Part shown: piece by piece, positions 25,241 to 26,730 of the stretch | Numbering within the stretch: the first letter of the stretch is position 1 | Layout: the number at the start of each line of letters is the position of its first letter | Source of the DNA: Octopus vulgaris | Lineage: Eukaryota | Direction: 5' to 3' | DNA: 64,000 bases | Assembly (NCBI GenBank): GCA_951406725.2 | Contig: OX597830.1 | Span: forward strand, 22,878,001 to 22,942,000 | Made by a program: the position numbers and the translations under genes | Notes under the pieces: generated by a model | The model's input: the letters and a program-made list of their open reading frames with translations, nothing else | Told to the model about the DNA's origin: nothing | Databases searched by the model: none

Positions 25241-25829
25241 ATATATATATATATGTATATATATATATATATATATATATATATATATATATATATATAT
25301 ATATATATATATATATATATATATATATATATATATATATATATATATATATATATATATATATATATATATATATATATATATATATATATATATATAT
25401 ATATATATATATATATATATATATATATATATATATATATATATATATATGTATATATATATATATATATATATATATATATATATATATATATATATAT
25501 ATATATATATATATATATATATATATATATATATATGTATATAATTTCAACAATTGAGGGTAAAATTAATTAATTATTAATCAATTTCACCAAGTGTTCA
25601 GTATGCAAAGGGACCATTTAAGGCGAATTCAAATTATTACATTATATAAAAGGGCTTAGTAAAATAAATTACTTTGCCGCATACTGAACTCATTAGAAAT
25701 AGCAGCTAAAAAACTTTTTAAAGCTATTTCTAATACTTAAAGAAAATCTCTCTCATATATAGTGTTTGCTTAATTCAACTCACAAAAGTTTGGGGTAAGG
25801 ACATCAAAAAATCAAATGCTAAGGTTATT

Positions 25830-25881
25830 TGAGAACGTACGTTTCAAGATTAGTCAAAACGACACTTCTATCATCAGCTCA
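25830..25881 (-). ncRNA. Minimal type-I hammerhead ribozyme
   Basis: UGAG-CUGAUGA-(uAGAaguGUC..GACuaaUCUu)-GAAA-CGUACG-UU-CUCA. Confidence 0.75.
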
Positions 25882-26360
25882 GAAACTCCTTGGTTTGGAT
25901 TTGGAAACACTGAAAGTAAGAACATACCCTTTCGGCTTCTCATCGCTCTCGAAGATCTGCTCGTAACTAACAGTGCCAACAAACTCAAATAAGCAAGCGA
26001 AGAATTTCTGTTCTCCCCTTTCCACCAGCGTGGGTTAAAATCATCAAACACTATGCTTATTTCGGTAAAATCCGAAGCATTAATTAGAGGGAGATTAATT
26101 ATAATTTCAACAATTGAGGGTAAAATTAATTAATTATTAATCAATTTCACCAAGTGTTCAGTATGCAAAGGGACCATTTAAGGCGAATGGTGTTTGATGA
26201 TTTTAACCCACGCTGGTGGAAAGGGGAGAACAGAAATTCTTCGCTTGCTTATTTGAGTTTGTTGGCACTGTTAGTTACGAGCAGATCTTCGAGAGCGATG
26301 AGAAGCCGAAAAGGGTATGTTCTTACTTTCAGTGTTTCCAAATCCAAACCAAGGAGTTTC

Positions 26361-26412
26361 TGAGCTGATGATAGAAGTGTCGTTTTGACTAATCTTGAAA
26401 CGTACGTTCTCA
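26361..26412 (+). ncRNA. Minimal type-I hammerhead ribozyme (inverted copy)
   Basis: Reverse complement of 25830-25881; palindromic ACGUACGU stem III, GUU triplet. Confidence 0.75.
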
Positions 26413-26730
26413 AATAACCTTAGCATTTGATTTTTTGATGTCCTTACCCCAAACTTTTGTGAGTTGAATTAAGCAAACACTATATATGAGAGAGATTTTC
26501 TTTAAGTATTAGAAATAGCTTTAAAAAAGTTTTTTAGCTGCTATTTCTAATGAGTTCAGTATGCGGCAAAGTAATTTATTTTACTAAGCCCTTTTATATA
26601 ATATATATGTATATATGTATATATATATATATGTGTATATATATATATGTGTATATATATATATATATTATATATATATATATATGTATATATATATTTA
26701 TATATATATATATATATATATATATATATA

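Follow-up and report, generated by a model that had tools for sequence, protein, structure and literature searches.

Animal genomes carry retrozymes of 51-972 bp, which Li et al. (2026, bioRxiv 10.64898/2026.07.22.740005) describe, in the available part of their preprint, as non-autonomous derivatives of Penelope-like elements (PLEs). As characterised in the accessible sections of that preprint and of PMC7229834, animal non-LTR retrozymes are ORF-less, low-GC tandem units with one type I hammerhead per unit, a short palindromic helix III, a stable circular fold and a high copy number. The case that PLEs mobilise retrozymes has so far been argued from co-occurrence and from pLTR homology. PLEs for their part leave insertions that combine a partial tandem, an adjacent inverted 5'-truncated copy at the 5' end and a head-to-head junction, extended at one end only and placed in a microsatellite target (available text of PMC8557442; Arkhipova et al. 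2013, PMC3846280). How PLEs form such tandem and inverted insertions is named as open in that text of PMC8557442, and it is here that the octopus locus has its value, which is mechanistic.

We describe an element at 25541-26602 of the window (the whole 64-kb stretch of O. vulgaris DNA that was analysed) that shares these features of both systems, the circular fold as a prediction. With a probability of roughly 0.75, it represents a young copy of a type I hammerhead retrozyme of 560 nt, protein-free and high in copy number, that parasitises PLEs as a non-autonomous element, this copy having entered a (TA)n tract in one event and from one template. As an object it is ordinary, a retrozyme in a PLE-style layout, and two further hammerhead motifs lie in the same window. 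A young and abundant family with PLE-hallmark insertions lends junction-level support to the link between retrozymes and PLEs. Literature searches on octopus hammerhead ribozymes and cephalopod retrozymes found no report of such a family, and the words 'ribozyme' and 'retrozyme' are both absent from the 2026 O. vulgaris repeat paper, in its main text as in its one supplement.

The element is bounded by two TA tracts, at 25241-25543 (TRF period 2, 151.5 copies, 98% matches) and 26595-26733 (tandem-repeat call). Its left copy (25541-26188, sense on the minus strand) comprises 1.16 units, or 648 nt, and its 3' end lies within the left TA tract at a TATA motif of the unit. The unit is set by a direct repeat of 89 nt, 100% identical at a spacing of 560 nt: the first copy (25540-25628, minus strand) is the 3'-terminal portion of the left copy, and the second (26100-26188, minus strand) is a 5'-truncated upstream unit, making a partial tandem. 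Beyond this lies a right inverted arm of 413 nt (26190-26602, sense on the plus strand), the 3' end of which falls within a TATATA cluster of the unit; aligned with the 411-nt left arm (25641-26051, minus strand), it shows no substitutions and two 1-nt homopolymer insertions. The arms are separated by a 138-nt spacer without a palindrome. Their head-to-head (5'-to-5') junction at 26187-26190 can be read either as one untemplated G at 26189 or as a 2-nt AT microhomology with one mismatch.

For the element we number the minus strand from 26188 to 25541 as E1-E648, with E561 equivalent to E1. The right arm then corresponds to E138-E548, written on the plus strand and ending within the right TA tract. 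A 12-nt segment (25629-25640, minus strand) lies, in unit coordinates, between the 3' end of this arm and the 5' end of the left copy. The left 3' end carries a one-sided, 'tail'-like extension of 100 nt (25541-25640, minus strand) that is missing at the right 3' end and that, judging from PMC11167929 and the available part of PMC8557442, may be analogous to the PLE tail. These measurements bear out the earlier note, which had reported an 88-bp direct repeat setting a 560-bp unit (88 nt is the length when the base common to the TA tract is left uncounted), an inverted copy of 25641-26051 with arms set apart by two homopolymer indels only, and (TA)n at both ends. Its statement that combined direct and inverted arrangements are typical of PLE insertions agrees with the available text of PMC8557442 and PMC3846280.

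Partial tandem, inverted 5'-truncated copy and one-sided tail together give the layout of a PLE-mobilised insertion as set out in the available text of PMC8557442. Compared with the PLEs described there and in PMC3846280, the octopus unit has no RT/GIY-YIG ORF and no junction palindrome, and its extension measures 100 nt rather than 30-40 nt. Indeed, the 560-nt unit (33% GC) contains no ORF: the longest stop-to-stop frame in the doubled unit is 91 aa, and the RT and GIY-YIG ORF that would lie between pLTRs is absent from it. The unit falls within the 51-972 bp range of the Li et al. (2026) preprint and is longer than the invertebrate monomers of 170-400 nt given in the available part of Cervera and de la Pena (2020, PMC7229834). 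This copy has an inverted arm; the word 'inverted' occurs 0 times in the main text of PMC7229834. The family has no coding capacity, a head-to-tail tandem unit and multiple copies, as non-LTR retrozymes do, although the octopus copy carries one hammerhead per strand and not the two ribozymes on one strand expected of a retrozyme. We propose that it functions as a non-LTR retrozyme does and that PLE machinery inserted it. The first reading of this locus as a PLE was right about the architecture; it missed that the unit is ORF-less, self-tandem, high-copy and retrozyme-type, not simply a PLE end.

Two smaller features of the unit may be recorded here. An 11-bp internal inverted repeat (25680-25690 with 25597-25607 and 26157-26167) pairs across the unit join and closes a multi-hairpin domain containing the right arm's 3' end; this domain may be a protein-binding or RT start structure. 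At 25911-25934 (minus strand), upstream of the hammerhead, inspection by eye showed a donor-like GTATGT some 20 nt ahead of a pyrimidine run that ends in AG and resembles an acceptor; an intron there was rejected because it would be too short within one unit.

The element contains two type I hammerhead motifs of identical sequence, one on each strand as the first reading had placed them: 25830-25881 on the minus strand (predicted cut after GUU, between 25834 and 25833) and 26361-26412 on the plus strand (predicted cut after 26408). Each combines a 4-bp contiguous stem I with a plausible extension, CUGAUGA, a U.U at the base of stem II, GAAA and a 2-bp stem III that sits within the perfect 10-nt palindrome AACGUACGUU, with cleavage predicted after GUU. 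These elements make up the type I core of CUGANGA ... GAAA ... UH with three helices and an open helix I. The canonical G10.1-C11.1 pair is absent, being replaced by U.U here and showing A or G at 10.1 in family relatives. Its absence is not disqualifying, because the axolotl hammerhead HHR_Amex2, which has the same U.U at the base of helix II, cleaves, and does so better as a dimer (available part of PMC7229834). A palindromic short helix III is a mark of hammerheads that work as dimers (PMC4209133, as available).

A relaxed type I scan of the 64-kb window returned four matches, namely the element pair and two unrelated motifs, against 0.07 expected from 100 block shuffles. Rfam gave no match at the gathering score in the window, and none of its 18 matches at E<=10 was a hammerhead; the two more canonical hammerhead motifs of the window were likewise missed at that score. 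The best Rfam match by E-value, MIR2655, was set aside, since it scores 41.8 bits against a gathering score of 122 and merely mirrors the inverted repeat.

Opposed hammerheads have a precedent in the PLE remnants of Schistosoma, where pairs lie on opposite strands about 100-700 bp apart (Cervera and de la Pena 2014, PMC4209133, in the part available), and the octopus pair is about 480 bp apart. The Schistosoma hammerheads are minimal ones in which A9 is followed by an additional base and G10.1-C11.1 is kept, whereas the octopus pair has a 2-bp helix III, U.U at 10.1/11.1 and a self-tandem unit. Such opposed pairs, 100-700 bp apart, are thus already in print in the available text of PMC4209133; what is new here is the junction geometry.

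The unit has a predicted circular fold more stable than expected. As a circle it reached -144.8 kcal/mol, compared with -110.1 +/- 6.9 kcal/mol for shuffles, none of 40 equalling it. A second run gave z -6.9 for the unit and -1.7, -3.4, -0.2 and +0.6 for four control stretches; since controls went down to -3.4, other repeats can reach about -3, and we place the unit overall at about -5 to -7. Within these models the active hammerhead is disfavoured, with a predicted helix I pair probability below 0.01 even locally. For the dimer, the most favourable fold (-27.6 kcal/mol) buries GAAA in an extended palindrome, and the rival dimer fold with two helices II and an intermolecular helix III reaches -16.8 kcal/mol (helix I left out). 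A predicted ribozyme-blocking fold is found in some mussel circles, unlike most animal ones, according to the available part of PMC7229834. Low or protein-assisted activity has been reported for PLE hammerheads, and eight of nine Xenopus retrozymes tested did not cleave.

The 560-nt unit belongs to a very high-copy family. At least half of the sampled words were present in 20 of the 24 runs listed, which span nine studies and two organism codes. None of the 24 is recorded as RNA; one, X4, is RNA by guess, and its contigs may be DNA. Four of them (X1, X2, X11 and X4) were aligned to 25541-26270, and all four gave contigs, at 4451, 856, 1789 and 186 per run. The contig results below draw on a listing of 40 of the 47 variant rows (39 places), 24 of the 283 loose ends and 32 of the 7342 pieces. 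Exact-pattern scans of metagenome and viral contigs returned 0 loci.

Evidence from these contigs agrees with a self-contained tandem unit. The unit join at 25628/25629 is bridged by at least 31 letters on each side in three of the pieces listed (records 9, 18 and 25); the join at 26100/26101 falls below this 31-letter standard, the best listed piece having 39 and 22 letters. Contigs almost never run into unlike sequence (a share of 0 in three DNA runs and 0.03 in X4), as fits such a unit, the short contigs limiting the test. These shares bear on the alternative that the unit is the terminal part (pLTR and tail) of an autonomous PLE that went in truncated and partly in tandem. A hammerhead, a tail, an inversion and a TA target are each characteristic of PLEs (PMC4209133 and PMC8557442, as available), and in a listing that includes 24 of 283 loose ends, one 379-nt X2 contig (record 20) matches 25757-25836 only and carries 297 unlike letters sense-upstream of the match. 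An end piece would have ORF sequence upstream, however, and what lies upstream of this unit is its own 3' end; with the absence of an ORF and the near-absence of run-on contigs, this makes the alternative unlikely. Record 20 may come from a sister family or be a partner PLE's pLTR. The self-contained retrozyme unit remains our reading of the family.

Variation within the family mostly appears to spare the ribozyme. Of the 39 variable places listed, only one falls within the hammerhead and its extended stem I, against 4.9 expected (P=0.029); for the bare 52-nt motif the deficit is not significant (P=0.10). A lower count in a 116-nt stretch (1 against 8.1, P=0.001) was discarded because its limits were chosen after seeing the data. 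In two diverged X11 loose ends the CUGANGA core is kept while N7 and 10.1 are changed (U to A, or U to G), which is what a functional hammerhead would allow. Family variants break 10 pairs of the predicted circular fold, compared with 14.3 +/- 2.5 at random (P=0.063), and so weakly support that model.

The same contigs contain two strand switches inside the unit. At 25648/25684 one X11 contig (depth 42.5) changes strand, possibly a second inverted copy from the other organism code. An opposite-strand joint at 25694/25737 in X1 and X2 falls on an internal hairpin, and we did not take it for a second inversion.

All parts of the octopus copy descend recently from one unit sequence. At 25948 both arms share a near-private allele, C in the window and T in the family (in sense, G for A). 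The T depth there, as summed contig depth and not copy number, is 162727.6 of 162785 in X1, 25526.6 of 25526.6 in X2, 37318 of 37318 in X11 and 110.6 of 130.3 in X4; among the 40 variant rows listed (47 in all), this is the only place where the window letter is nearly absent from the family. The direct-repeat copies are identical even though the family varies within them at 25596, 25606 and 25610 (about 39, 48 and 23% of X1 depth). It is the shared allele together with the identical repeats that points to a single, recent source sequence. The recent insertion suggested in the earlier note is therefore upheld, by the identity of repeats and arms and by the standing of 25948 among the 40 of 47 rows. 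That X2 and X11 lack the window allele is no proof of a presence/absence polymorphism, as contigs drop rare variants.

Could the inversion be an assembly artefact, a fold-back chimeric read or a misjoin? The arms differ by homopolymer indels only, and such indels are a typical long-read error. In addition, the junction at 26189 is bridged by none of the 32 contig pieces listed (of 7342), and X2, of the same organism code, has no contig bearing the window allele at 25948. Against this, one of the two arm indels, at 25714, is a real family variant, polishing would have turned 25948 into the majority T, and no long homology that could lead to a misjoin is present at the junction. Moreover, a fold-back chimera would retrace the left flank, whereas the right side continues into a different fragment. 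This last point above all makes an artefact improbable, and we give it the poorest odds of the explanations considered.

The flanks themselves are two fragments that point outward from the TA tracts. On the left, outside the element, a 5'-truncated LINE RT fragment starts at the TA tract (ORF, 24175-25240, minus strand; RVT_1 E=6e-11). On the right, a different 5'-truncated LINE-like fragment has TA on both sides (ORF, 26734-27722, plus strand; no Pfam match), and its LINE identity is inferred from a by-eye likeness to the translation of the left fragment. They also bear on a change made after insertion at the DNA level, by a replication template switch or by gene conversion between the arms. 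Such a rearrangement would equally give identical arms, and long TA tracts are plausibly unstable. The right arm, however, ends on a TATA cluster that directly abuts the TA tract, which is how an insertion would end; neither flank is duplicated, and the LINE-like sequences on the two sides differ. A later rearrangement is accordingly a poor prospect, and we return to a single insertion event.

Such an event could have run as follows. A tandem or circular RNA of the unit would have been the template; the tandem organisation is seen in the DNA and the RNA would follow from it. The RT/GIY-YIG protein of a PLE, the mobiliser we infer for the unit, would have nicked the TA tract on both strands, by extension from PMC11167929. 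One target end would then have paired with a TATA motif of the RNA and been extended by 648 nt, and the other would have paired with a second TATA cluster further upstream and been extended by about 411 nt. Joining of the two cDNA ends head to head, with loss of the 12 nt between them, would amount to twin priming.

The positions of the ends are consistent with this scheme. There are three TATA/ATAT clusters in the sense unit, and the outer ends of the insertion lie on two of them. Both 3' ends fall at most 2 nt from such a cluster, for which the chance is 0.003 (post hoc, one locus), and the inverted arm has its 3' end (E548) 12 nt before the 5' end of the left copy (E561), for which it is 0.02-0.045 (again post hoc, at one locus). 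Twin priming of L1 leaves microhomologies at the ends and an internal deletion (PMC2912911 and PMC2837659, as available). The octopus insertion has both outer-end target microhomologies and a short internal deletion, at this one locus and as judged post hoc, and like L1 5' inversions it consists of two head-to-head fragments. Unlike the L1 case in those sources, the template would be a repeated non-coding unit, so that overlapping arms form a long inverted repeat; poly(A) is absent, reverse transcription would fall to a PLE RT, and a TSD is unreadable within (TA)n.

Biochemical precedent comes from a purified Anolis PLE protein, which cuts nicks into either strand of AT-rich DNA and extends both, initiates at two internal sites of the RNA and works with uncleaved RNA (PMC11167929). 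In vitro it primed without target homology, which differs from the microhomology reading for the octopus element (PMC11167929). Twin priming also makes demands on its template. It requires an RNA of about 1070 nt that spans two uncleaved hammerheads and has the rare allele in both units. A linear multimer would thus need a source array with that allele in adjacent units, and at most 57 X1 depth units lack T. Twin priming is nevertheless the version of the joining step that we prefer, at somewhat less than even odds. Our literature search, by titles, found no paper linking twin priming with PLEs or pLTRs.

A simpler account of the shared allele is a fold-back of the first cDNA. Here the cDNA, after 648 nt, would have switched onto itself at 26051, copied back 411 nt and joined the right TA tract through a TATATA microhomology. 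Exact arm identity, including the near-private allele, then comes without a source array, the TA-like right end is accounted for, and self-priming has been proposed for PLE inverted junctions (PMC3846280, as available). The junction, though, has no palindrome, with a 138-nt spacer and 0-2 nt of microhomology, and the 12-nt register between the halves, which twin priming explains, is left to chance (0.02-0.045). We regard fold-back as possible and hold it only tentatively. A genome-wide count in the family could separate twin priming from fold-back.

The allele weighs against dual priming, in which priming on the two strands would have involved two separate RNA molecules, perhaps through a dimeric PLE protein with two preferred start sites at a distance of 100 nt (the tail). 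For the Anolis PLE, extension of both strands, a pair of start sites and a predicted dimer have been reported (PMC11167929), and dual priming is described for L1 (PMC2912911 and PMC2837659, in the parts available). In a family with at least 39 variable places, it would be rare for two RNAs to agree completely over 411 nt and to have a near-private allele in common, and we consider dual priming quite improbable. Returning to twin priming, a broader and tentative proposal, which we doubt more than we believe, is that inverted PLE pseudo-LTRs arise by twin priming on uncleaved multimeric RNA, the ends of (TA)n pairing with built-in TATA clusters; the family would then record the mechanism repeatedly, and each inversion would convert a hammerhead pair that releases circles into a hairpin with the potential to silence the family. 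It is speculation, from two bases, that the A-to-G allele (sense) at 25948, and possibly the junction G at a UAG site, are A-to-I edits of the template RNA fixed by reverse transcription.

Whatever the joining step, the inversion would turn a would-be same-strand hammerhead pair, able to release monomers, into an inverted pair. The phrase 'two opposed ribozymes' used on first reading is true of the DNA; in RNA, any given transcript has just one of them in the sense orientation, opposite its own antisense version. Since the two ribozymes are never in sense on the same transcript, double cleavage in cis cannot free a unit-length monomer from this copy, which is probably a transposition dead end. 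The argument rests on geometry and not on helix I probability: the modelled read-through folds into a long duplex (-756.6 kcal/mol, 457 pairs in all), but helix I has a probability of 0.0 both there and in the sense arm alone, so that the calculation does not isolate an effect of the inversion. Read-through would give a 411-bp hairpin; the earlier note took such dsRNA for a likely ADAR or siRNA substrate, which we treat as a possibility and a hypothesis. The RNA-guess run X4 has no excess of A>G or T>C, with 7 and 9 places compared with 6/6/6 and 7/9/3 in the DNA runs, a weak comparison made on contigs only.

The surroundings have taken up several unrelated insertions. The stretch 23526-28628 forms a TA landing pad of four TA tracts, split by the element and the two outward-pointing 5'-truncated LINE-like fragments. 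Directly after the TA tract at 27723-28628 comes a broken GIY-YIG-like 3' fragment of a PLE (28630-29820, plus strand); its GIY-YIG-like part (29319-29681) has Atlas look-alikes up to 0.95, and PF01541 occurs in 40% of the members of one listed cluster. An RT-like frame at 52179-53825 (plus strand), with a stop at about 53366, has a weak RVT_1 match and DUF8422 look-alikes; by its motifs we take it to be Penelope-like, and the relaxed type I scan of the window placed no hammerhead near it. Neither it nor the GIY-YIG-like fragment has DNA in common with the unit. Likewise, local alignment of the unit with six stretches next to the window's PLE-like and hammerhead pieces did not rise above shuffles and turned up no autonomous partner there.

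The two unrelated hammerheads lie at some distance. One (21985-21940, minus strand) is of type I, with G10.1-C11.1, a 5-bp stem I and a palindromic stem III, and adjoins a SINE-like repeat. The third hammerhead of the window (39812-39777, minus strand) belongs to the minimal type of PLEs: its A9 is followed by an extra base, and its palindromic helix III is minimal. By eye it sits inside an inverted repeat of about 140 nt (about 39800-39940 against 39945-40035), and this repeat may be another inverted PLE stump. The window also contains a 3.5-kb (CTTT)n array (14307-17851; 886 copies, 86% matches). Two tandem arrays, at 33599-34155 and 58815-59234 with periods of 184 and 176, are built from a SINE-like repeat that is frequent in the window and that we take to resemble octopus SINEs.
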